Source: Glycera tridactyla
Lineage: Eukaryota
NCBI GenBank assembly: GCA_965644265.1
Contig: OZ286475.1
Span: 66,650,001-66,714,000 of the forward strand
Reading direction: 5' to 3'
DNA: 64,000 nt
The position numbers were made by a program, and so were the translations under genes. This document shows, one piece after another, positions 14,031 to 38,533 of the stretch. The notes beneath the pieces are model-generated. The model ran no database searches. It saw only the letters and a list, made by a program, of their open reading frames with translations, and was not told the origin of the DNA. The first letter of the stretch is position 1; each line of letters opens with the position of its first letter.

Positions 14031-14432
14031 CTCCCACGGCTGACAGCTCGTAATCGAACACATTGGCTGGGTATTCTCTGAACTGAGGCATTTCCTTGTT
14101 CAAATCACTTTTCTAGAAGTGGGAGCACAACTCTCAGGCTTGAGTGTTGGCTTCCAGTCAATTACATAGCAAGATATCCCAATGATCGGTCAGTACTATA
14201 CGAGTTGAGTAGAGGTCTGTGCGAGCTGTTTGCCACATTATTTCTACTTCCCCATCTTCTTTGTTCGGGGATCCCGGGAGTGATGTCCGCAGAAGACAGA
14301 ACATCCAGCTCCTACTAATTGATAACACATTGTAAACATAATCGTTGGGGTTGACACTGGCTGCATCTTGGACTCATAGGTCTGTTTGTAATCTGCCCCC
14401 CCCCCTCAAATTTCATCAATCAGGGGTATTTA

Positions 14433-17062
14433 TTGATTCACTCCACACTCCACTTTTTTCTAAAGTCATTCAAATTGGATCAATTGATAAATGAACCTAC
14501 GAGAGTCACGCCACAAAGTAGTACATTAATCGATCACATTTGCGTAAACAACAAGAATCTATACTGGAAGTTCGGGGAAATGGATCTTGGACTCTCTGAC
14601 CACTCTTCAGTCTACACCATCAGAAAAAAAAGGAAGATCAGCAAAGAATCGGTATACACGGAAATACGTGACTATAACCATACCGACAAAGAAAAGTTTA
14701 ATGCTGATGTGAAAAATGCAGACTGGAATAGGTTGTATACCGAACATGATGTGAATGTTTGTATAAAAATTTTGAATGAAATCATGCTCCCCCTGGTTGA
14801 CAAACATATGCCAATGTCGAAGAAAAAGGTTCACATAAATGGACCCAAATGGGTCAATCATGAATACTTGAGTCTCAGTGACCGCCTTTGTTACCAAAGT
14901 AGTATGTGTTCAAGAAATCCCTCGGAAGTGAATATAACTAACAAGAAAGAGACTCAGAGAGAATGTCGTAAGTTAAAAAGACGACTGCAGTGTAATCATA
15001 TCACAAATAGTCTGAATGAACATGAAAATGATCCAAAGAAATTATGGAGAACCTTGAAAGAATTTTGGCCGACAAAAAGCTCCTCAAATCATATCTCTGA
15101 AATCAATGGAGAATCAAATGATACCAAAATTGCTAATACCCTCAATGAACATTTCTTTTCGGTTGGTCCCAAACTAGCAGGAAAGCTTGGACCCAGATGC
15201 CAGAATGATTTCATGAACAATTATACAACAAATAGAACTAATTCAATTTTTGCGCCACCTCTACTGACTCGGTACTAAAGGCGATTGATAGGCTATCGAC
15301 TAACAAAAGCTGCGGTAACGACGGCCTCACTCCAACCATACTAAAATGGTGCAAAAGCACCATTGCTCCTATACTCACCTATATTTTCACCTGAGGTTTT
15401 GAATCGTGTGTATTCTCAACTGAGCTAAAAAAGGCAGTAGTTACACCACTAAGATGGACCCAGAAATGATCCAAATGATTATCGTCCCATTAGTGTGCTG
15501 GCAACAATCAGCAAACTATACGAAAGAATAGCACACAATCAACTAACAGCATATATCAAGGAAAACGACATTCTATGTCGGGAACAGTCTGGGTTCAGGG
15601 AGGGGCACTCTACTGGCACATGCTCGATTCGATTCCTGGATGATATATATCGAGGAGTCGAGTTGGGCATGGCCAGTGGAGTGCTCTTCCTTGATCTCAG
15701 GAAAGCTTTTGATACGGTTGACCATGATATCTTATTGGGGAAATTGAAAATATTGGGTCTCGAGAGTACAAGTGTCAACTGGATTTCATCATATCTAACA
15801 GATAGAACACAATCTACCCGAGTCAATGGACATCTGTCTAGTGAATTGAATATAACTTGCGGAGTGCCCCAGGGATCCATCCTGGGGCCACTTCTATTTA
15901 CGATATATGTAAATGATCTTCCATCCTGCCTCAGTTGTGGAACCAGTAGTTTATATGCAGACGATACAGCTATTGTCGTCACAGACAAAAATCAAGACAT
16001 CATACAGCAAAACTTGAATATTAGCCTGGCTGAAGTGTCTGTCTGGTTATTACAAAATAGGTTGTCACTGAATATCGCCAAAACGAATTACATGATCATA
16101 GGCACGAATCACATGTTAAATTCATGTCAAAATAAAGTAGTCAAACATGAGGATGACATTGTGAAACCAGTGAAATGCTTCAAATACCTCGGTGTCAAAC
16201 TTGACCACAAGCTAAGTTTTACGGAACATGCCCTTTATATACGTCAGCGCACCATATCACGTGTAAAACAATTATGTAGACTAAGACCCATCATCAGCCG
16301 CCAAACTGCTCTTATGCTATACAAAACACTAGTCCTCCCCATGTTCAACTACTGTGATATCATATACGATGGTCTGAATCAAAAGGACAGCGTATTCCTT
16401 CAGCGTGTCCAGAATCTTGCATGTCGTTGTATTACCCAAACAGCCCCAAGAGCAAATTCACAGGCACTACATGACCAACTATCACTGGATTATTTGACAA
16501 CCAGGAGGCGAAAACATCTGGCTACTATGTCATACAAAATGATGAATCAAAAGGCCCCCCAATATCTAACAAATTCCATGAAGTTTGTATCTGATGGGAG
16601 CTTGCGATCAACCAGATCATGTACTCGTAATGATTTGGTCATCCCTAGAATGATGACATCCAAAGCTAGATGTTGTTTCCATTATAGAGCATGCTTACAA
16701 TGGAATCGTCTCCCAGTTGATATTCGCGAGAGTCCGAGTATTGATACTTTCAAATCTAAACTCGAAAATCTGTCACCCACCTTGTTTTGAATATCATAGC
16801 CAAAGAAGAACAATATTGTCATAATATCCCTTTCCCTCCCCCTCCCTTGCTGCCAGGCCTCTCTCCAAACCACCCTCGTCCTTGACATCACAAGATACTA
16901 TTCATTTATACTATAATAAGCCTCTACCCGAAATAAATGTTGTATGTATAATAATAGTTAAGTATTGTATATATGTTGTATTCTCGGCCCCAGCGAAAAA
17001 GCTTCCATTGTTGGAGTAATTCCTGTTGACGAATCAAAATAAAGTTATACAAACAAACAAAC
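14433..17062 (+). mobile_element. 5'-truncated L2/Crack/Daphne-type LINE
   Basis: End of APE domain (LIDHI, GLSDH), KKLWRTLK, FLDLRKAFDTVDH, GVPQGSILGPLLF, YADD, KYLGV; 3' end AATAAA plus (CAAA)n. Confidence 0.92.
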
Positions 17063-23488: not shown

Positions 23489-23757
23489 GATGTTAACAGT
23501 TTAATATGGATGTTTTGCGACGGTACCTACTTTTCCCATATTTTCGAAAGAATGTATCATCGCAATGTGAACCATTTCCGGCAAAATAAAATTTTGAAAT
23601 TCATATTTTTCGCTACTCTCTTTTTGTGTTGTGCCACTGTACTGTCTTACAAATGGGTCAGAGTGCGTGTGGGAGCCCAGTATGTGTCATTGGATCGGGT
23701 TTACATTTCCAGATATGAATGCAATACATGTTAATGCTGATACTTGATGCGGGTCAC

Positions 23758-24396
23758 ATGGAACATCAAGATTACTGTTCAAGGAAAATTCAAGATCCAT
23801 TTTATGTGGTCGATTCAGGAGCAGAAAGATTACTTACATATATAACATTCTGAGAACATTTCCAACAGAGAAATGAAATTTCTCTACTGTTACTCAGCCG
23901 ACCAGCCTCTGTGCACACTTATGAAAGGATATGTGCCCCATATCACTTTCAATAAGGAACTGCCAAATGATGAAATATTGGAGAAATTCACTTCTCCAGC
24001 TAAGATGCACTTCATTATGGTAATTGATGACCTGATGCAAGATTTGATTTCTTAAAAGATTATGTTGGATTTTTCCACATTATGGGCATATATTTTCTGT
24101 ACGTTTCGCACAACTTGTACAAACGAGGCAAGTTCAGCAGGGCGATCACACTTAACGCCTCATACATTTGCCTGCTTCAAAATGTACGTGGAGGGGATCA
24201 GATTTTGACCCTTAGTAGACGAATGTATCCTGGAAAAAAAGAAGATATGATTGCTGAAGCCTATAAACAGGCAATGAACCTTCAGCACTATAGATACCTG
24301 ATCATTGATATGACACCGAACACAACAGACGAGCTATGCCTGCGAACAAAAGTGTTTCCCTCCGAAATAACACGATTCTTCACGACACCTCTCTAG
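23758..24396 (+). pseudogene. Polinton packaging ATPase (A32/FtsK-like)
   Basis: Frameshifted Walker A (SILCG..GxGK-like), VIDDLM Walker B, SHNLY, ITLNASYICLLQNVRG, YLIIDMTP, LRTKVFP. Confidence 0.85.
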
Positions 24397-24476
24397 GCCG
24401 GTTGCACTTAGTGCATAGGATACATTAGTCAAAATTCATGAGAAAAAACATCATGTCTAGGTCCGTGAAATAATCC

Positions 24477-24764
24477 ATGAAGCTTGTCCACAATGAAAGG
24501 CCTTTCTTTTTGGCTCTATTCAACTCAGCCGAGGAATCAGACGTAAGTGATATACATCTCCTGCTGGAAGGCATGTCTATAGAACAGGCATCTGCAATAG
24601 GCACAGTTGAATTAAATACATTGTACGGTTCCATTGGAATTTCCACAAGACATAAAAAAGAAATGAAACAACTGAAGAAATATTTTAGATCAATTACAGA
24701 TGAAACAACTGTACCAGGGCTTAGGAAACGCTTCAAAAGGCTTCAAAAATGTTTATTTCCATAA
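24477..24764 (+). CDS. Polinton small basic ORF
   Basis: LNTLYGSIGISTRHKKEMKQLKKYFRSI resembles the small ORF that commonly follows the Polinton ATPase (recalled pattern). Confidence 0.55.
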   Translation: MKLVHNERPFFLALFNSAEESDVSDIHLLLEGMSIEQASAIGTVELNTLYGSIGISTRHKKEMKQLKKYFRSITDETTVPGLRKRFKRLQKCLFP

Positions 24765-24926: not shown

Positions 24927-25202
24927 ATGGCGAGATCAGAAACCAACTCAATGAGTACCACGAATGTCAGAGAATATTTTTCGGTTCCTGCTTCCAAATC
25001 AGAGGCATTCATTGAATTCCAAAATGGCGACGAGGCCGATGGCAACAAAAATCATCGTGACCATGCAGCTATAAATACCAATTCTCACGAAATGGGGTCA
25101 TCAGAAGTACGAACTACACCCACGAGTGAACAAGCATGGGCTGAAGAGATGAAAGGTGGTCGATCAAAAGCGAGAAGGACAATCATACGCAGACTCACTT
25201 AA
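24927..25202 (+). CDS. Unknown 91-aa ORF with SEQAWAEEMKGGR motif
   Basis: Open frame; TAATG stop/start overlap with the next ORF; paralogous motif at 28370-28585 on the minus strand. Confidence 0.55.
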   Translation: MARSETNSMSTTNVREYFSVPASKSEAFIEFQNGDEADGNKNHRDHAAINTNSHEMGSSEVRTTPTSEQAWAEEMKGGRSKARRTIIRRLT

Positions 25203-25840
25203 TGGATCACATACCAAATCCCCCCCCCCAAAAAAAAATGGGGGAAAAGATGGCTAGACTTCAAGAGCATCGGGAGAAGTTAGGTAGACTGTGGCCCACT
25301 TGTGACATTGAGGTATGTTGTACTAATGCCCTGTGTAAATCGAACTTTAATTGTTCAGTCGATTCGACTGACAGCACTCACATGTTCCCTAACATTAAAT
25401 TCAACCCATCGAAAATGAACTGTGCTGTTATGCAACATCATGAGATAGGTGGAGGGAAACCAGTAGCTCTCATATTCAAGTCAGGATATATTTCAATTAC
25501 CATTGATAAGACTGTCTCAGCTGCAAAGATCAATATGCGTCAGTTTTTTCACGTATTTCAAAGAAAAGGCTATGATGTGAGATTGACCAGGGTCTCAATT
25601 CAAGCACCATCAGTCTGTGTCAAGCTACCATCGACATTAAAAATCAACAGCATTAACAAGTTGTCCAATGCCAGCTACGTACCTGAATCACTTCAAGTTC
25701 TATTGCTCAAGGTAGGCAGTATCTCCTTCCTGATATTTCCATAAGGTAGTATTGTTATCACCGGCCCCAATTGCTCATCCTGTATAGCACATGTACTTAC
25801 CAATGTTATTGTATTTTGTTGGTCCGTCCCCAAAAATTAG
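25202..25840 (+). pseudogene. Divergent TATA-binding protein (TBP)-like gene with one in-frame stop
   Basis: Colinear with the TBP core: TNAL..NFNCSVD, NIKFNPSKM.CAVM, VALIFKSG, RKGY...IQ, SYVPE, FLIFP*GSIVITG; TAA at 25742-25744, frame ends at TAG 25838-25840. Confidence 0.8.
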
Positions 25841-26028
25841 TCCATCGGAAGTGACACATGTGACAATGACTGATGGTACTATGGGGTCGGGTTCAGTTGA
25901 GTCCCACTCATCCATTGGTCAGGTAAACCTGTCTGCAATAAATTTAGAAGAAAACATAGGAATTAGAGATTCAGGAGCTGAGGTGAACTCGCCTGCATTG
26001 AGTCACACACTTTCTGGATGACAGACTC

Positions 26029-26298
26029 ATGCCTGGCTTATGTATTGAGAATGAGATATTTTCTAGAGTCCCCTTTTATGAACAAGCCATTCTAATTTTC
26101 ATCATTTGCATCGCTTACATCATGAACTTGAGTATTGGATCCGAACACAAAACTGTATGGGTATCACTTCTTCCCTCGATCTTAGGATATATATTGCCAT
26201 CTCTTCAAATTAGAGGACCTCAGAAAAACACGATTGTGGGAATAATCCAGGAAGCCCTAGGCCTTTTCGACTGGTCAGTTTCCTTGAAATTGGGTTGA
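26029..26298 (+). CDS. Polinton small transmembrane ORF
   Basis: FYEQAILIFIICIAYIMNLSIG...VWVSLLPSILGYILPS fits a recalled conserved small Polinton membrane protein. Confidence 0.65.
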   Translation: MPGLCIENEIFSRVPFYEQAILIFIICIAYIMNLSIGSEHKTVWVSLLPSILGYILPSLQIRGPQKNTIVGIIQEALGLFDWSVSLKLG

Positions 26299-26299
26299 C

Positions 26300-27880
26300 A
26301 GGAATTTACTCAACGACCGTAGCCCAGCCGAATAGGTTTCGTATCTTCGCAATCTATACAGGAATCTGAAAAAAGGTGGAAGTTACCAATCGCCCGATAA
26401 ATTATTCCACACTGTTCAAAAGGAAAGTAAATTCAACATTTCCCTTGTTCAGGTACACAATTCTTTACCAAAGAGGTGCCCCGAAAGTTCAAAACCAATA
26501 CGATAGAAATGTTGTCCAGCTCCAGACTCTCAGAAGGTGATCTGGCTGATTTACACATGGACATGAAAGATAACAATATATTTCAGGAGTAATTGATACT
26601 TTTTCCAAAAAATTACGGGTTCAACTTTTGAAGACCAAGTCCGGGAAGGAAATAATCTCAGATTTAACAAATATTTTCCGAACTGATCATGGAAGTGAAG
26701 TTTCTAATCATCTCGTTTCTGAATTTATGGGAAAAGGAAACACAGGTCAGTCCTTTACTTCAAATTTGAGTCAGCCAGCATACGTAGAGAGAACATAGAA
26801 AAGTATGAAAAAATGGATGAGAAATTATATGCAAGATAAAAATAAGATAAGATACATTGATATCTTGAATGACCTTGTCAAAGGTTATAATTACACCCTA
26901 CACACAGCCATAGGGATGACTCCCAAAAAGGCTTTCCAAGCCAATCCTGTTCAGGTTGAATTCAACCTACTCAGAAATAAACAGAAGCGGAACAAAAAGG
27001 CAAGATTCAGTCCCTTCAAACACTATTGATGATAACCAAACCCCAGAATTCGAGCCTGATGTTGGTAAGTCTGACCCCTAGGACTCACTACATGATTATC
27101 CTGATCAATGAACATCAATGAACATCAATGAACATCAATGAACATTGATCCCAGTTTTCCTCCACATCTGCCACAAGTCAGGTATTGAAGTACATCCTGC
27201 AATCTCTCATTCACTCATTCACTCATGCAGTCCCTCTTCTCATTCACATCTCTACAACCACTTCAATGTTCCATCCTTTATTCTTCACTGAAACTAGCAA
27301 TATATTGATATGTTCTTGCACTTGTTCGTTCAACTTGTACATATGTTTTGTATTGGAGTATAGACACTTGATCCTGACTGTTAATTTGCAATATTTGCAT
27401 GTAGTACGACCTTTTTAGGTCACATGTCTTATGTTCAATAAAATATCTACTTACTTACCTACTTGCTAATAAATATCGCCACAAACTAGATGAGCAAAGA
27501 GCACAAGCTGAAAAAATGAAATTCAAGTTCCCTATAGGAACACCTGTGAGAATCAGTATAATTTCCCAGAAATTGGACAGCGAGTACACTGAAAGATGGA
27601 GTAAGGAGATATTCTACATTCACTCAAGACGTTTCAGAGAAAAGATTAAAGTATACAAATTTAAAGATGCGGAGGGTAAATATTATAGGAGCCTTCTTTG
27701 CTACTGAACTTCAAAAAGTGGCAGAACCCGAGGCTGATAAACTATACAAAATAGATAGAGTGACCAAATCACATACAGTGACAGGTCAACACAGGGGGGA
27801 AACAGAAGAATACCTTGTCAGCTTCATTGGATTCACAGCCAAATTCCATTAGTGGATACCCAAGTCAGATATCAAAAGCA
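26300..27880 (+). pseudogene. Polinton rve integrase with C-terminal chromodomain, interrupted
   Basis: VIDTFSK, TDHGSE, YVER, YNYTLHTAIGMTP, KFPIGTPVRIS, RWSKEIF, ELQKV, EYLVSFIGF...WIP. Confidence 0.88.
26990..27465 (+). mobile_element. Retroposed insertion in the integrase (boundaries approximate)
   Basis: Non-coding block ending AATAAAATATC plus (TACT)n; contains a (CAATGAACAT)x4 tandem. Confidence 0.55.
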
Positions 27881-27952
27881 TTGATATAAATACGGGGCCC
27901 TAATAGTAATAACAATAACACAAATTGATTCAGAGCATCAGTTCAATTCAAT

Positions 27953-28375
27953 ATGTCAGAATCGAATGAAGTTTCTTCCACTATATATGTTTCAAGTGAT
28001 GACTCAAAAACAACATACACATATAACAATGCATATCATTGCATAGTTGAATTGCCATATCAGTTATCATTTCCTGGAACTTGGTTTTGTGAGGTCCCAG
28101 GCCCAGGGGTAATTAGATATGTTGGGTATGCAATGCCATATTCTCTTGTATTCATGTACTGTATTTGACCATCTATAGCATACAATACAGAAGTTGGAGT
28201 ATGTGGGTTATATTTTTTGTATGACCTGAATCATCCATTATGATGGCCATAGAAGAAGGTGGCATCCAACTAGATAAACAACATATTTCAAGGTTTGTTA
28301 TTCGCCTCGTAACAGACACTTTGAGTAGTTGCAGTTTTGTAACTGATAAAACTGTGATAATTCTGAAGTTCACTT
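27953..28375 (+). pseudogene. Polinton minor capsid (penton)
   Basis: IYVSSDDSKTTYTYNNAYHCIVELP..LSFPGTWFCE at the N-terminus; ISRFVIRLV...FVTDKTVIILKF at the C-terminus; disrupted. Confidence 0.7.
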
Positions 28376-28585
28376 CGAAATCATGGCCTCCTGGTCGCAA
28401 GGGTAAGTAGGCCGATTCAAAAAACACTTCAATGCACAATCGGATGGATATATCCCATACTCGCCTGGCTTCACTGTAATTGGGAAAGTATCTGGTCGTC
28501 GACCTCCCTTCAACTCTTCAACCCAAGCTTCATCTGAGATTGTTTCCCTCCCAGCAATGGCAGCTGTTGAACAAGCATCAGACAT
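28370..28585 (-). CDS. Unknown small ORF with SDEAWVEELKGGR motif
   Basis: Peptide and codon-level similarity to ORF 24927-25202. Confidence 0.45.
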   Translation of the reverse strand: MSDACSTAAIAGRETISDEAWVEELKGGRRPDTFPITVKPGEYGIYPSDCALKCFLNRPTYPCDQEAMISK

Positions 28586-28695
28586 TGTTGGTGCTGGTAA
28601 TAGGAGAAGAAGAGACGCTGACGAAAACGAGAACGCCTAGGATCTTCGAAAGGAGTCACGAAAAAAGGGCGATCGAGTAAGGAGCCAGAGGAGAG

Positions 28696-31600
28696 TGGAA
28701 TGCAAGACGGCGGACGTCGGACGCGGCCGCGAGTGAGCTCTCAAAGAAGTCGAAGTTCTGAGGAGTTTCAAGGCCTACAGGAGGATTTTTCATGACAGCG
28801 CCGAGAGGATTTACTGTTGGGGAACCGAGGAGATGATGAGAAAGCAGGATAGAGAGGATCCCAGGATTTCTGCAGTAGTTGAACTGTTGCTGAGCAACTG
28901 TCAACAAAGATCTTCAGCACTGGAGGCTAGAAACGGATCTTCCTGTCTAGGACTTATACTAAATATAAACAACACAAGTCTACAAAAGAGTTGAGACCCC
29001 TCAACTTGGTGATATCTGCTTGAAATTGCACCTGGAAACCGGTGAGGACTTTGCTCTTTGATGTCCAGTAAAGTAGCGTAGATTAGTGAGTGTTTGAGAG
29101 GCAGAAAAAATGTCTAGGTGGCTTGAGAAGTACACAATATCACCGCAGAGCAATAAGAAAAAGGAGAGGACTGGTAAGACACGTAAAAGCTTGGGATCTA
29201 GCAGAAGGAAAGCGAAAGCAGCAGCTGAGGCTAAAGCAAATGATACAGCAAAGAGTGGGGCTGAGGACAGCTGGTCTTGGTTGTGTCAAGAGTGCCAGGT
29301 AAACTTTGATGATGAAAATGAGAGGATACATGAATGTAGTATGTGTAGGCTACACAAGAGAGGAAAGGGACCTTATAAGAGAGAAAGTAGCAGAGGCAGA
29401 GGCTTTGAGTGAACAAGAGACAACAAAAAACCGGATCTATCGGGTGAGAGGCCAGTCTGGGGAACTAAAAATTGTGGAGTTGGCAAGATCAAGACCAACT
29501 CAACAAAATTAATGGAGCCGTCGAGAAAGACGAAAACAAGTGCAAAGGCAACAAAGGGGAAGACCCACACAAAGACAAGTCAAAAAAACATTTAGGGTAT
29601 CAAGGTCTTTCACACAAATGCGGACTCACTGAGAAATAAGATAGACGAACTGAAAATGAGGGTGTTCCAGGAAAAACCGAAGATTATAGCTGTTGTTGAA
29701 GCGAAACCAAAAAACTGTAGGTACCCAAGGGACAGGTGTGAGCTGCAACTTAAGAACTTCACTCTCTATGACAATATTGAGGATGGAAGTCGGGGCATCT
29801 GCCTATACATACACAACAACTTAAATCCATCAACGTCAAGTAGAATCAAGGAAGATTTTGAGGAAGTGATCTGGGCAGAGGTGAAGACAGGAACAGGGGA
29901 TCTCATAATCGGATGTATCTATCGCAGCCCCAACAGTGATGCAATCAGCAACGTCAAACTGATCAGCATGTTACAATCAGTAGGACAAATTACAGGAGCA
30001 CAGGTACTTCTGATGGGTGATTTCAACTACCCCGAAATTGACTGGGAGAAGGAGGTTTGTGCAGCTGGACTGGAGCATCTGGCTAACACTTTGTTGGAGA
30101 GCACGCGAGATGCTTCCCTTACTAAACATGTTACTGAACCCACTCACTATCACATAGGTCAGAAATCAGACACACTTGATCTTGTTTTCAGTAGTAAAGA
30201 CGAGATGGTAGAGGATGTCACTGTAGATACCCCCTTGGCTGGTAGTGATCACTGTGTCATTTCCTTCGATATGAACATTAATTATGTGGTGCATTCTAGC
30301 AGTAAAATGAGCTATAATTACTACGAAAGAAACTATGACCAAATGAGATGTGACCTAGACCCGAACTGGGAAGTGCTCTTTCAGTCAAGATCAGTCGACG
30401 AGTGCTGGAAGATCATTGAGGACAAGATCCATGAAGCCAGAGAAAGAAACATCCCAAGGAAAGGAAGGAATAAAGAGGGGAGACCAATATGGATGAATGA
30501 CAGGGCCTTGGCCAAGATCAAGAAGAAACACAAGGCATGGAGGAGGTTCCTGGAGACTCAAGCTGATCAGAATTATCAGGAGTTTGCCAGGGCGAGAAAC
30601 CGGGCACGGTGGGAGAGTGGAAAGGCCGGGAAAGACTTCGAGCGGAAGATCGCCAAAGATATCAAGAGAAATCCCAAGGCTTTCTGGAACTATGTACGTC
30701 ACAACTGAAGTCTTGAGGGCAGATCCCAAACCTGGATAGAGTATCCGACAATGCCAGAACCACAAATGATCTGGAGGCAGCAAACGAGTTGAACGCCCAA
30801 TTTGGCAGGGTTTTCACTAAAGAGGATCTCTCAAGTATGCCCAATCTATCACCGAAACACTACGGGAGTCATCTAGAATTGCTGGTGATGGATATTGAGT
30901 GGGTGAGAAAGAAACTCGACAAGCTGAACCAAAATAAAAGTGAGGGCCCAGATGGTGTCCACCCAAAAATTCTGGTGAAAGCTAAGAGACAGCTAGCACT
31001 CCCTTTATGTATGCTCTTTCAGAAGACGATCGATGCAAGAGAGACACCCATGGAATGGAAGGAAGCAACCATAGCCCCAATTTTCAAGAAAGGCAACTAA
31101 CCATCCAACTACCGTCCAGTGGGTCTGACATCTGTCATTAGAGACGCGGTGGTAGAGCATATGTAATCAAACACGCTTTTCAGTTGTGACCAATATGGAT
31201 TTATGGGAGGAAGATCAACGGTGACGCAACTATTAGAATCACTAGAGGCATGGACAAGGATGTTGGATGAGGGTGACTTCCAAAAAGCTTTCGATTCAGT
31301 ACCACACCAGTGACTACTGAACAAGGTTCACAACTATGGTATCCAAGGAAGGCTACATCAGTGGATTTCAGATTTTCTTCAGGATTGCAGGCAAAAAGAG
31401 TGAGAGTCAACGATTCCTTTTCAGAATAAATAGATGTGAGGAGTGGTATCCCTCGAGGCAGTGTACTTGGTCCGCTGTTGTTCGTGATCTTCATCAACAA
31501 CCTACCAGAAGAAGTGGACTGTGGGATCAAAATCTACACGGACAACACAAAGATATTTGCCAGAACAAACTTCATGGATGACTGTGAGAAGTTCGTAAGC

Positions 31601-32477
31601 AACATAGACAACATCTACAACTGGTCCCAAAGGTGGCAACTGACATTCCACCCGGAGAAGTGCCACATATTGCATTTGGGCAGATTTGACAAGATGTTCC
31701 AATATACCATGTGGGGATGACCAAAACAAGACTGTTTTAGCTGATACCACAGTGGAGAAAGACCTTGGAGTGTACATGGACAATAAGCTCTTGTTTGATA
31801 GTCATTGTCAACAGGTAGCCACAGCAGCCAATAAGTTAGTGGGGAAAGTGAGACGTTCATTTGCCTACCTAGACAAAGCAAACTTTCTACTTATTTATAA
31901 AGGACTATTCAACCACGGCTGGAGTACGCAGCATCTGTTTGGAGCCCGATGAGAATCAAGGAGATCGAGACTCTTGAGAGTGCACAGCGAAGGGCAACAA
32001 AATTAGTGCCTGGTTTGTCTGACCTTGGCTACAAGGATAGGCCGAGAGCACTAGACTTACCCACTCTGGTCTTCAGGAGGCTGTGTGGGGATATGATTGA
32101 GACTTTCAAGTTCCTGCACGATATATATGATGTAAATCACAATGATATGTTACCACCAGGTGGGGGCAGAGAAACAAGAGGGCACCCATTGAAGTTGAAG
32201 AAGAGGAGAGCGAACAAAAGACTGAGAGCACATTTCTTCTCTCAGAGAGTAGTAAACCGGTGGAACATGCTCCCTGAGGATGTGGTCATATACAGCACCA
32301 AGGCTTGATTGTTTCAAGTCTCACCTTGATAAGCATTGGGAAAGTCATCCTCTTTGCTTTGAGTTTAAGGCCTCAGCGGACATATTTGAGTGATACAGTG
32401 ACTGACTCGCAACCTGGTGTATAGGACTTCACCTGAAACACCGTATCAGATACTACTACTACTACTACTACTACTAT
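28696..32477 (+). mobile_element. CR1 LINE with 5' UTR, truncated PHD-type ORF1 and decayed ORF2
   Basis: ORF1 WLCQECQ...ECSMC; APE (HTNADSLRNK, IYRSPN, GDFNYP, LDLVF, GSDH); RT (KAFDSVPH, PRGSVLGP, YTDN, EKDLGV); (TAC)n tail; flanks TAAGGAGCCAGAGGAGAG 28678-28695 and TAAGAAGCCAAAGGAGAG 32478-32495 (16/18 TSD). Confidence 0.93.
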
Positions 32478-33181: not shown

Positions 33182-34092
33182 TTCACATTTATACCTTCAA
33201 CAGCAGATTGTGAACAGTTCAGGAACATCATATGCCTACAAGAGTATGTTAGATATCTTGCTAGAAAGTGACTGGAGTGATGTGGATGGTCACCTGATAG
33301 AAGATCTCTCTCAGGGAAAATGGACTTGACAGCGAAATTGGGAACCAATAAAAATGTTGGATTGTTTGAACGATCAAAATTTACAGAAGAATCCAAAGTA
33401 GTGAAACTTCTTCGAAAAAATCTGCATCTTGATTTTAAAAGACAAGATCGGTTACTACTCAATGCTGTGCAATTGACAATGAAGCTGACTCAGAACTCGG
33501 ACGAATTTAGGATCTTGCGTCTGGCCCCTGTAGTCAGTGCTGATGGTAATATCGCTGATCCTAAAAATTATAGAGTGGAGATCCTAAATGCCACCCTCAA
33601 AGTTCGAATGATAAACCCTTCACCAGGAATGCTATTGGGTCATAATACAGGACTAGCCAGTGGGCCAGCATTATATCCATTCGAAATAACAGAAATAGAG
33701 ACAGCAGCCATTCCTTCAGGAATGTTGGTGGCCACGTGACAACCTATTCTCGACAGCACAACCGAAACGATTGGTAGTAGACTTGGTTTCATCAGCTGCA
33801 TCTGACGGAGACAACCTGAAAAACCCGTTCAAGTTTGTTAGTTTCAACTTAAATTATTCATGCCTTACAGTTGATGGCTCTTGTGTACCTTCACAGGCAT
33901 TTCAACCAAATTATTCCAGGAACCACTACTTAAAAGCCTGCGATCCCTAGTGTCTGATATCCAGTCTTAGACAACTGATTCTGAACATACATCCATACCA
34001 TTTGTTGAAAATCTGGTGATTTTTCTCGCCCCTCTTGAAACCGGTGCATGATATCTGGAAATACATAATGGTGAATATTGATTATACTGACT

Positions 34093-36400
34093 GTTTGTTT
34101 GTTTGTTTGAAATGCTTTATTCAAAGTAAGCATGGACATAATACAATGTGGAAAACAGAGCATACAGTCATTTCACATGCTCACATGGACAAATCTAGTG
34201 TGAGAGGAAAACATGTTGGAGTTTGAACAAACTAAATATCACAACATCAAACACAGAACTACAAAATTATGGGAATCAAGGATGATAGAGCAAGATGGTA
34301 TTCAAATGAAGCACACAGGCTGGAGAGATGCGAAAACATTTGATCAAACAACAAACAGTGTTACGAATATTGGATCTAATGACAAACAAGAGGAAGGGTG
34401 TCCCGATTCAAAACAGATGACTATGGTTTTGAAGAAAGATCATGGAACATGAAAGAAAGTAATATCAGGCTTGATGGATAATAAGTTACATTAGATAATC
34501 ACACGTAGTGATACAGCAGATATGTCAGCCAGGTGATCGTTGCCAGTCAGGGTCCATACAGCATGCCTATCACGACAAGAGAAAACAAAACACTTGTTGC
34601 GTAGATATGAATAGATTCGTAGTTAGGTCAACTGACCTGTGATTGTTCATGACTATTGCTGGAGAACCATCTTATAGTGGGAACAATAACTTACATTGCC
34701 TCTTTAGCGATTCCAGTGTTGAACAGTTATGTATTGCCACCGGACAAGTATTCCAAAGTACCACTCCCCTTATTAAGGGGTTATTCCTGGCAAACTGTGT
34801 ACGTGTCCCCGGTATGTCTAGTGCATTGTTTTCAGTTTGCCGTGTCGATCTTGAAGAGACAGTGGCACGCGTCACAACCAAGTTGCGCACATGATCATTG
34901 CTAACGTTATTTACCAATTTGAATATTTCTCGTACAAGATGCCTGTTCCGCAGGGTAGAAAGGTAGGGAACTCGCAGTGTTTGATGGCATTCTGATGCGG
35001 AATATACGCCATTAAACTTGCGAACCACTTACAAACATCTGTTTTGGGCCATTTGTAGCTTGTGTTGGGCTCATGTTAACGTACCGCCATAGATGTGGTC
35101 ATTATAGCACAGTAGTGATTGTACTAAGGAATGATATATATAGTGCTCTCTCTTGGCTGATGTAGTGACGTATATGACGCAGGGCTGAGAGTTGGTGGTT
35201 TACTTTCCGTGTCAAGTAGTCTACATGCTTTTCAAACAACAAATTCTTGTCGAGAATCAGACCTAGATACTTATATTCAGTTACTCTCTTAATTCTCATG
35301 TCCCCATAAGCTATTTTCTGAGCTTCAAAACGTTGCATCTGCGGCCAAGTCCCAAAAAAAATGATGATTTCCCGATATTTAGTGATAGGCGCATGTACTT
35401 TAACCAGGATGCCAGGATGTCAAGGTCCATCTGGAGCTTCTTGATTAGCTTTCTCATGCTTTGCATTATTACAAATGGCGGTATCGTCCGCGTATAGGTA
35501 TGCATGCGAGTGAGATAGAACTCTAGGGATCTCGTTTACATAGATAGTGAATAATAGGGGCCCGAGAATTGACCCTGTGGTACGCCACAGCTGACTGAGT
35601 GTTTCTTGGAGATAACATTGTCAAACTTTGTGGATTGGGTGCGGTTGGCCAAGTATGATTCAAACCATGTCACTGCACTATATCGAAAACCAATTTCACG
35701 AAGCCTTTGGAGCATCATAGTGTGGTCAACCGTGTCGAATGCCTTCTTCAGATCCAGGAAGAGGATCCCAGTAGGACGCCCCTGATCAGCCTCCCTGAAG
35801 ATATTGTCCAGGAAGCTGGTCAGGCAAGTCCCAGTGGAGCCCCCTCCCTGAAACCGAATTGGGCATCCGACATATTTTGTAATCAGATAGATACTTGCAT
35901 ACCTGTCCGTGAACTAGTTTCTCCATGACTTTTCCCAGGACTGGCAGTATTGATATTGGTCTAAAGTTACTCACGCCAATATCGAGACCACCTTCATGGA
36001 TGATTGTTACAATGCCATCTTTCCAGTTAGTGGGGAAACTATTTTGTCGAATGGACAGGTTGCAGATATGAGTTATTGCAGCAACGATGCTGTCGGGGCC
36101 CATTTCAAGTAACTTGAGGCTATACCATCGCGGCCGGAGGATTCTGACTTCTTGAGACTATTTACTATTTTCCTAACTTCACCCGGGTCGACCTGCTCCA
36201 ACTCAAAAACTGGTGGTCTCAGTGGTGGGTTTGGGATTGGGTTGGGGGAAGCGGGTATCTTCTCAGCTAGCCTACTGCCGATGGTACTGAAGAAGTCATT
36301 TTATTACTCATTACTCCTAACCACAACCATACCCGTGCTCCTAGAGAGTTATTGTATTTTGTGTTTTTTCATTGTTGTTGACATTAGCATGGTCTACCCA
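34093..36400 (-). mobile_element. Decayed L2/Crack-type LINE
   Basis: NFRPISILPVLGKVMEK, GVPQG, YKYLGLILD; minus-strand AATAAA plus (CAAA)n tail at ~34093-34120. Confidence 0.88.
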
Positions 36401-37231
36401 CGTTAGCATACTGTGCCGCTATCCCTATATATATGTGGGAAATCATGTTCATATGGCGTGACCCGAAACATATGACTTGATCCAACTTGCAGTGAATTTG
36501 TGATTATAGCTCTGCTCATTGATCATATGCACCTGCAATATTTATTGTAAATAATAATGATCTGATGCTGATTTTTTTACTAACATGTCTGCGTAAGCAT
36601 CTAATACGACCAGTATTGGTCACGTGTAATTACTGTTCATCCTGTAAATACCTTACGCGATACACATATCTTTATCTGTATCTGTATTTTCTTGCACTCA
36701 ACCAGATTCAGCTGGTGAACCTTGAAAGTCAGCAATGCTTATGTGACAGGATTATCCCCAGGACATGCTATGTATTATTGGATTGAGTAAATTCATAAAG
36801 AATGCCCCGAGTGCCAGCACGAGGGACATCCTTGATTCATCATCCAAGAAATGAATAGAATAATGAATCAGCTTCAATTTGGTGTTTAGATTTGAATTTG
36901 ACCAGTGGTTGATGAGTTATAGAGATTTTTCTCAAGGGATCTTTGCCTTGACGCTATACGATTCGAACGCGCGATGCTGTCAGTTGACCCTTGAACTCGA
37001 TTGTTCTATAGCCAATCAGCGGTGGTGCAACGGTCACACAACATGCAATATAACCTCAAAAATTACTCGATCCATACGTACGTACACTCTGTGCAGCGAT
37101 TACATACATGCTACACTCGACATCGGATGATAATGAATTATCCATTACACTCACCCAAGCTGTGACATATATTCTATATGCAACATGTAATGCTTTGTTC
37201 CGAGTGGATGGGACAAGGAATGTAAGAGTAG

Positions 37232-38533
37232 ATGGGAATACAGTATCGCATTCTGGAGAACATGGACAGAATAAAGCAGTTCTCATGTACAGATATTTTC
37301 CTGGCTATCAACTCTTACTCTAATGAATTGAAATTTAAGCAGATGGAAGTTTGTGCAGAAATTGAACTTCCCCAAGTATATGAGGTAGAGGTGAAATTAA
37401 ATCATGACTTAGCGTTGATTTCTAACTTGTTTAAGAGTAGGAAGCTCACACTGAATCTCAAAAAATCGAATGTTATTCTATTTGGAACAGACCAGCGCCT
37501 CCGTAAATGTCGACGTCTTGTGGTCAAGTACAATGACCAAGCAGTACACCAAGTAGAAAGCTATAAATATCTGAGTATCCAATTGGACCCCACCCTGTCT
37601 TTCAAAAGCCATGTTGATTACTTAATACGAAAAGTGAATTTCAGAAGGCAAGCATTATATTACCTGCGCCCCTCAATCAGTAAGGATATGTCTCTCTTCT
37701 TGTATCAAAATCTCATAGACCCGCTCTACACATACCTAGATTTTGTTTATGATGCCTGTTCCATGTCTTTGAATAGGAGGCTCCAAGTCTCGCAAAATCG
37801 CTGTCTCAGTGTGGTATGTGAACAGGGTTGGAACTACTCTGCCAGCGATTTACACTCAGCTCTTGGTGTCGCCTACCTGAAGGACTCTCGACGCTGCAAT
37901 ACAATCATCGAGGCATTTCGTACCAGGCAAAATGTTAATGTGCCTACCTCAGACATATTCACCCCTGCAGTGCAGAGAACCGAAGGGCCGAGCACAAGGG
38001 CCAATAGTACGGTTAGGCAGAACAACTTATTGTCAATGCCTTTCAGCCATCTGCACTTCAGTGATGGTGATTTCCGCATTAGAGGCGCCAAGTACTGAAA
38101 CAATTCCAGTATAGAGGTTAGAGCATGTGACAGCCTGTCAGGAATCAAGCGTGTTCTAAAATCTCACGCTGCATGATGTCATCACTATCTGTGACACAAC
38201 TTACCTAAATATCTCTACTCTACTACGTGCATGTACACGTGAAATGTATTACCTTAGAGGGACGACCTGCTGAATCAAGTAGGTAGACATGACACTTTCC
38301 CTGTGCTCCTCTATCCACGATACAACGTATCTTGAATATACTCTGATTTATGTATCTTTATTGTTATACATGCTGAACCAATGTTTGATATTAATGTAAC
38401 TATTTTGCTTCTACTTCAACTTGCATTTTTGTACTGAGTTGCATAAGCACATAATATGACCCGTCAGGGTCGAGTGTAAATATTGTACTATATCTCTTAT
38501 GCAATAAAAGTTTTTCTGATTCTAATTTCTGAT
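37232..38533 (+). mobile_element. 5'-truncated L2/Crack-type LINE
   Basis: LTLNLKKSNVILFG, YKYLSIQLDPTLSF, FRIRGAKY; 3' UTR stem-loop and AATAAA plus (TCTGAT)-like tail. Confidence 0.85.

Follow-up and report, generated by a model that had tools for sequence, protein, structure and literature searches.

A TATA-binding protein gene carried by Polintons of Glycera tridactyla and a clade-specific box ahead of their virion-module genes

Introduction

A TATA-binding protein (TBP) fold serves viral late transcription in herpesviruses. According to the available portions of PMC12529657, KSHV ORF24, a viral TBP (vTBP), recognizes a non-TATA late-gene box and works with host RNA polymerase II (Pol II); the likeness to the elements described here, which is by inference, lies in these features. 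ORF24 also carries additional domains at its N and C termini, contacts Pol II directly, acts in a six-protein complex and lacks the glutamates that contact TFIIB (PMC12529657, same portions). In contrast, the Polinton protein is reduced to the core, at about 170-180 aa; it keeps these glutamates and has lost two phenylalanines, and models suggest that it is nearer cellular TBP than ORF24 by fold score. Large dsDNA viruses also encode two-lobe TBPs, often together with their own TFIIB and with diverged adapter sites, as stated in the available text of PMC7221094. The Polinton elements differ from them in having no detected TFIIB and a cellular-like stirrup.

Polintons, Mavericks and adintoviruses share with the present elements a protein-primed PolB, an rve integrase, an ATPase, a C5 protease, inverted repeats and a 6-bp target duplication (PMC8502044, in the part available). 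What sets the present elements apart is a TBP gene at a constant place and a box specific to the clade. An earlier note on this locus had been aware of no TBP described as Polinton cargo. No such description was found, but legends to figures in Starrett et al. 2021 (PMC8502044; preprint 10.1101/697771) do carry a label "TBP", within the available part of the non-animal section on adintovirus-like PolB elements. In the portions of the literature covered, no conserved TBP or promoter box is described in animal Polintons, and genome-map figures, supplements or Repbase may hold one. Neither PMC11131425 nor 10.64898/2026.06.19.733378 mentions TBP or TATA, and one supplement of PMC8502044 likewise mentions neither. 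General background on shape readout by TBP is given in PMC4139847, as far as its text was available.

Results

A decayed TBP gene in a Polinton remnant

The window is a stretch of 64,000 nucleotides of the Glycera tridactyla assembly GCA_965644265.1 (contig OZ286475.1, positions 66,650,001 to 66,714,000). Its frame at 25202-25840 (+) matches PF00352 in two stretches when the stop is written as X (E 3.7e-17, 62.4 bits, cut-off 22.9). The frame also matches solved TBPs at E ~1e-10 and is colinear with them across residues 41-191, which confirms the colinearity with both halves of the TBP saddle that the note had read from the sequence. The alignments likewise agree with its reading that both LIF phenylalanines are present and that the remaining two Phe positions are M and L. 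The premature stop is a TAA at 25742-25744, the single internal stop of the frame.

The start of the gene had been misread. The two-repeat TBP-like core occupies 25310-25840 (+), beginning at about 25310. In relatives, the small low-complexity ORF UP1 overlaps the TBP frame and ends with W-x-x-L-stop, 4 bases ahead of the TBP core and in a different frame. UP1 is broken in the window (24927-25303, +) and its C-terminal tail lies in the TBP frame, within the first ~33 codons as originally read (ARLQEHREKLGRLW, corresponding to GLQERRKKLRKLWIEL of the relative L002), whereas the equivalent of the relatives' TBP lead-in sits in another frame. The window copy has frame breaks at about 25200-25240 and 25290-25310. 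The originally read start (25202-25309, +) and its TAATG therefore stem from these breaks. The TAATG that had been taken to couple the gene to the upstream ORF is a product of decay and is ruled out as the gene junction. The core also carries private changes at otherwise fixed positions, namely R141, E186 (here V), L189 and T124/G125 (yeast numbering, used throughout, anchored on a plant-like TBP). From its sequence, the window copy is a fossil, that is a decayed and dead copy of a TBP gene. It has no close sibling among the compared elements, with 64-76% identity in short patches.

The neighbouring genes, all on the forward strand, are those of a Polinton, as the note had proposed. Upstream lie a frameshifted putative packaging ATPase (23715-24384), which in a relative has a P-loop and matches Pox_A32 below the cut-off (E 6e-4, 19.8 bits, cut-off 22.8), and the small conserved ORF UP2 (24483-24731, tblastn E 2e-18). 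Downstream, a conserved hydrophobic (TM) ORF, also frameshifted (25866-26298), separates the TBP gene from an rve integrase with chromodomain that is spread over several frames (26342-27873; rve in a relative, E 1.8e-13). The TM ORF has no Pfam match in a relative and, judging from position, we guess it to be GasderminX. The next ORFs are, presumably, a frameshifted minor capsid gene (27944-28407, labelled from position) and, ahead of the major capsid gene, a small basic ORF (28383-28733), for which we assume the name pX. The putative major capsid gene, a label that we again take from position, is present as a middle piece (33189-33944), cut off by a retroelement-type insertion, and a last piece (37129-37236). 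The capsid proteins of a relative have no Pfam match above the cut-off. No match to PolB or protease was found within the window. The whole element is dead, with frameshifted ATPase, integrase and minor capsid genes and a major capsid gene split by insertions. By eye, remnants of LINE-type endonuclease/reverse transcriptase are found at 14355-16790, 29596-32308 and 35102-38100 of the window, and two of them split the capsid gene.

TBP is a fixed gene of a Polinton clade

The genome of the window contains at least 142 TBP-like matches among the 150 candidates scored. Of these, 129 are stop-free over the matched 147 codons and 141 adjoin Polinton genes, a figure obtained by manually combining the match list with the tables of ATPases and integrases and by reading three loci by eye. 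At all 47 distinct loci mapped by script, TBP is preceded by UP2/UP1 or the ATPase and followed by the TM ORF or the integrase, where these neighbours survive. The dN/dS of the TBP core between families is 0.12-0.17 (6 unsaturated pairs), close to the values of neighbouring genes, and judging from these ratios the gene is under purifying selection. The count of neighbours contradicts the refuting case set by the note, homologues lying mostly outside Polintons, and together with the selection it bears out the idea of a Polinton lineage with its own TBP. The sole match without recognizable Polinton neighbours within 1.7 kb, L146 (G000:C31:86315701), is a 78-codon piece with three stops.

Intact relatives encode PolB (PF03175, E 1e-27), an rve integrase (E 2e-13) and Peptidase_C5 (E 9e-9). 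Inverted repeats of ~125 bp starting with AGTAGT, together with 6-bp target duplications, were found in two of six 30-kb stretches taken around TBP-bearing copies, both from one TBP-bearing family; the other four stretches did not include both ends. The element delimited by these repeats spans ~27.5 kb. Another observation concerns a TBP-bearing family of about 25 copies (L005-L030) that share 98.5-99.9% DNA identity, which indicates a recent spread of that family. Moreover, the 6-bp target duplication is identical in two Polinton families that are unrelated to each other (at G000:C1 near 4.77-4.80 Mb and at G000:C13 near 4.45-4.48 Mb), which may hint at a target preference.

The junction between UP1 and TBP varies among lineages. 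In clade A, the clade of the window, the TBP frame is open 30-165 codons into UP1 (for instance in L002, L004, L055 and L057), with a fixed spacing between the TBP frame and the UP1 stop, and most families have no conserved ATG at the TBP core. In clade H, the sister TBP clade, an ATG lies on the UP1 Trp codon, and JGI contigs have a free-standing ATG. Translation of the clade A gene could involve a start inside UP1, a frameshift or splicing. Contigs from four sequencing runs yielded a scatter of pieces at low depth in three runs that are presumed to be RNA, and no joints.

The TBP family extends beyond this genome, since dozens of relatives of 157-250 aa outrank nearly all cellular TBPs in profile searches. 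TBP precedes the integrase in all four JGI contigs retrieved; it occupies the same slot in L080 and L082, and the order in L080 is ATPase-UP2-UP1-TBP-integrase. Two short TBP-like proteins, P0040 and P0066, head clusters of 198 and 35 members located on ENA contigs of megabase size. Many of these members are truncated, a pattern that multi-copy elements in other large genomes would be expected to show. An IMG/VR scan gave 10 distant loci with query A1 (E 1e-6 to 8e-4) and no match with query A3. The first metagenome scan gave no match.

Fold and phylogeny

An intact relative matches PF00352 in two stretches (75.3 bits, cut-off 22.9), and the relative L002 is predicted to fold as a TBP saddle (structure model with pLDDT 90.5). 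A structure prediction had been suggested in the note; every one of the best Foldseek matches of this model, as far as E 1.7e-9, is a TBP structure, with E 5.6e-14 and TM 0.79 for human TBP and TM 0.72-0.81 across eukaryotic and archaeal TBPs.

A quick tree was built from 87 rows. In it, the window copy falls within the element TBPs (SH-aLRT 98), apart from which the cellular TBPs form a group (88). Two short element-like proteins, P0209 and P0274, belong with the element rows, and the four viral rows from IMG/VR sit on a long branch of their own. The phylogeny that had been called for places the window copy, but this quick version settles neither the root nor the origin of element TBPs. The host has separate TBP and TRF2-like genes, both containing introns (G000:C4:90964733 and G000:C1 near 79.05 Mb).

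The DNA-facing surface and the stirrup

As in cellular TBP, the element protein has a two-repeat saddle and keeps N69, F116, F207, T215 and the YEPE stirrup, with about 28% identity in structural alignments. It differs from cellular TBP in being an intronless minimal core on a mobile element and in having W-R-H-R-x-I in place of I-M-R-I-R. The changes of clade A are F99M, N159A/S/T, V122S, T124N, V161S and the loss of P191. V122S, T124N, V161S and Met at position 99 are all found in 19 of 19 clade A rows; N69 is likewise kept in 19 of 19 and N159 in none, being replaced by A, S or T. P191 is present in 0/19 clade A rows versus 14/14 cellular ones. Among the 10 clade A rows of the genome itself, F116 is kept in 10, F207 in 9, F190 in one and F99 in none, with Leu, Ile or Met in place of F190 in nine. 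Clade A also largely retains T215 and the basic residues at 98, 105 and 196. Clade H has His at position 124, versus Asn in clade A. The element protein belongs to the TBP fold family but lacks the canonical set of four phenylalanines, the Asn pair and P191.

From TBP-TATA structures, we take V122 and T124 to face box positions 5-6. KSHV ORF24 has Asn at V122, T124 and V161, that is N,N,N versus S,N,S in clade A, a resemblance and not membership (PMC12529657, available portions). The same portions state that ORF24 requires all four phenylalanines and that the proline favours T at box position 1; the loss of P191 would fit a C at that position.

The stirrup residues E186 and E188 bind TFIIB, according to the available text of PMC7221094, and in clade A E188 is kept in 19/19 rows and E186 in 18/19. 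No TFIIB could be assigned to the elements. PF00382 gave 3 matches among 10 candidates in the genome, all short open frames and none multi-copy, and 19 other element ORFs, left-end ones included, had no Pfam match to TFIIB, although a very divergent one could escape such a search. One helical left-end ORF has a predicted fold of pLDDT 39. No RNA polymerase encoded by the elements was found. Besides, a reverse-strand ORF near the right end of one element (L031:3780-4445, in a locus read on +) resembles PC4/Sub1 (Atlas 0.86). PF02229 is found on 21-78% of its cluster members and the ORF itself has no Pfam match; similar ORFs occur in L034, L042, L043 and L117 and, by eye, also in TBP-less group B.

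A box ahead of virion-module genes

In an unbiased word count of 10 clade A elements, CATAGGA is the top non-repeat 7-mer, with 62 occurrences versus 7.6 expected and 3 on the other strand. None of 200 shuffles reached its counts in L041 and L032. With gene starts assigned by script, YATAGGA lies 20-200 nt before 45 of the 86 virion-module genes of clade A, compared with 1% on the opposite strand; the other 41 have no box. The distance from box to ATG ranges from 26 to 195 nt, and the box frequently overlaps the stop codon of the preceding gene. None of the 10 clade A TBP genes is preceded by YATAGGA. The polymerase half (37,986 bases, with left ends undelimited in 3 of 4 elements) has 0 box matches versus 4.6 expected, and the virion block (32,837 bases) has 30 versus 7.2. 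Furthermore, Ile-Gly is encoded by ATA-GGA in 32 of 83 cases, versus 12.6 expected, and the base preceding ATA-GGA is C in 20 of these 32, versus 17% of third bases. This bias and the preceding C indicate that the DNA word itself is kept.

Exact or one-mismatch boxes survive in the window at slots used by relatives. CATAGGA is found before UP2 (24414-24420, +), a slot used in 7 of 10 related families, and again by motif match within the TM ORF, upstream of the integrase (25955-25961, +). Boxes with one mismatch lie 23 nt ahead of the ATG of the TM ORF (25843-25849, +) and 135 nt ahead of pX (28248-28254, +), the latter at the spacing of 8 of 10 related families (129-138 nt). Four YATAGGA of the window are on the + strand inside the 5-kb element block; over the whole window the word shows no excess (11 versus 16).

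Boxes of other clades and of TBP-less groups

Other lineages have other boxes. In three elements of clade H, YATAAG precedes 12 of 20 genes and YATAGGA none. YATAAG also precedes 8 of 9 genes in JGI contigs (background 23%). Group C, in which no convincing TBP match was found in three elements examined whole between their inverted repeats, has TATAWAW before 15 of 32 genes (background 12%), at common slots of 35-45 and 81-85 nt, and YATAGGA before 0 of 32. One stop-containing TBP match (E 0.02) does occur in group C. Group B, for which the element ends were not found, has no TBP in the slot; TATAWAW precedes 5, YATAAG 8 (3% background) and YATAGGA 1 of its 53 genes. The comparison used 6 of the 9 loci of group B and 4 of the 7 of group C, near-copies being dropped. 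The word CAATTA of group C was rejected as a box, being scattered through coding sequence.

Some further features of these groups were noticed. Group B comprises L095-L098 and L104-L108; at least L097 and L098 have a reverse-strand low-complexity ORF in the TBP slot, GCAAT(T)AGAG recurs 30-50 nt ahead of the TM ORF, and a PolB-like ORF lies downstream on the opposite strand. In group C, a polymerase ORF (L099:602-3217) ends in a NADAR domain (E 8e-16).

Discussion

We consider it probable that the intact TBP is the late-gene promoter-recognition factor of the element. Since YATAGGA stands before about half of the packaging/capsid-module genes, the TBP likely switches these on with the host polymerase. 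It would be made early by the host machinery and would bind the box of its clade through the minor groove. The loss of P191 would permit C at box position 1, and the polar changes of V122, T124 and V161 may make room for G at positions 5-6. The TBP would then recruit host TFIIB and Pol II, and packaging and capsid genes would be expressed. Such an early-to-late switch could not be triggered by host TBP, and the virion genes of an integrated copy would stay quiet. As for the broader proposal that Polintons evolved an orthogonal TBP-promoter pair, in which TBP and box drifted together from TATAAA to YATAAG and CATAGGA with host TFIIB and Pol II still in use, we give it an even chance.

Several observations count against a late factor. 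The distances from box to ATG vary widely, 41 of 86 genes lack the box, the box often overlaps a stop codon, the YATAAG background is high in JGI contigs and most clade A families have no conserved ATG at the TBP core. F99 and often F190 are lost, and N159 too, while ORF24 needs its four phenylalanines. Moreover, TBP-less group B has no clear TATA, and its YATAAG frequency (8/53) exceeds the 3% background.

The box might instead be read by another element protein or by a host factor, the TBP being an accessory such as a complex stabiliser. The elements do carry other ORFs with no assignment, including the PC4-like one (a lead only), group B combines its own recurring word with no TBP found, and two of the four phenylalanines are gone. 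We nevertheless judge this unlikely: the boxes are one or two changes away from TATAA and lie in slots where the TBP-less family has TATA, and the saddle changes are fixed within clades and differ between clades with different boxes (Asn versus His at 124). This co-variation rests on about four lineages, which are non-independent draws.

It is distinctly unlikely that the motif is an RNA-processing or translation signal (3' splice acceptor TAG/G, 3'-end signal or stop context) and that the TBP has an unrelated job. CATAG/GA does include YAG/G, and its frequent overlap with stop codons would suit such a signal, but base counts reveal no pyrimidine tract ahead of the motif, and YATAAG, its counterpart in the sister clade, does not resemble an acceptor. 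CATAGGA is also found away from stops and inside Ile-Gly codons, and is missing from the polymerase half.

The earlier note had also considered a decoy. Such a shut-off factor would dampen host transcription by binding TFIIB or regulators of TBP in the host, with no productive contact to DNA; the kept acidic stirrup and R141 would suit it, as would the loss of F99, N159 and often F190. We find this very doubtful, as the protein largely retains N69, F116, F207, T215 and the basic residues at 98, 105 and 196, and a box that varies with the TBP clade would be left unexplained. Of the two roles that the note had offered, a box that precedes virion genes and differs by clade favours promoter recognition. 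Finally, there is virtually no chance that the gene is a processed pseudogene of the host TBP that came to lie in a Polinton by accident, a reading that the missing introns and the broken window copy might suggest but that is refuted by the Polinton context of 141 of 142 matches (129 stop-free), by selection, by the common slot in unrelated contigs, by the separate intron-containing host genes and by the nesting of the window row in the tree.

Promoter recognition by the element's own TBP would have several consequences. By analogy, the element TBP likely works like a herpesvirus vTBP, yet is not one; this would be an independent arrival at the vTBP strategy with one bare protein and with the host TFIIB contact kept. 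The interest rests on the TBP family and its clade-linked box and not on the fossil copy of the window. TBP-bearing and TBP-less families stand side by side in one genome, which makes the link between TBP and box testable, and a direct test of sequence reading by the saddle would come from natural TBPs that tolerate G in the box. With a TBP and a private box to match it, Polintons would time their genes from early to late as replicating viruses do, and a virion stage in animals would gain support. If true, an integrated animal virus would thus switch on its late transcription with a single protein, and the elements would offer a natural series of altered-specificity TBPs.
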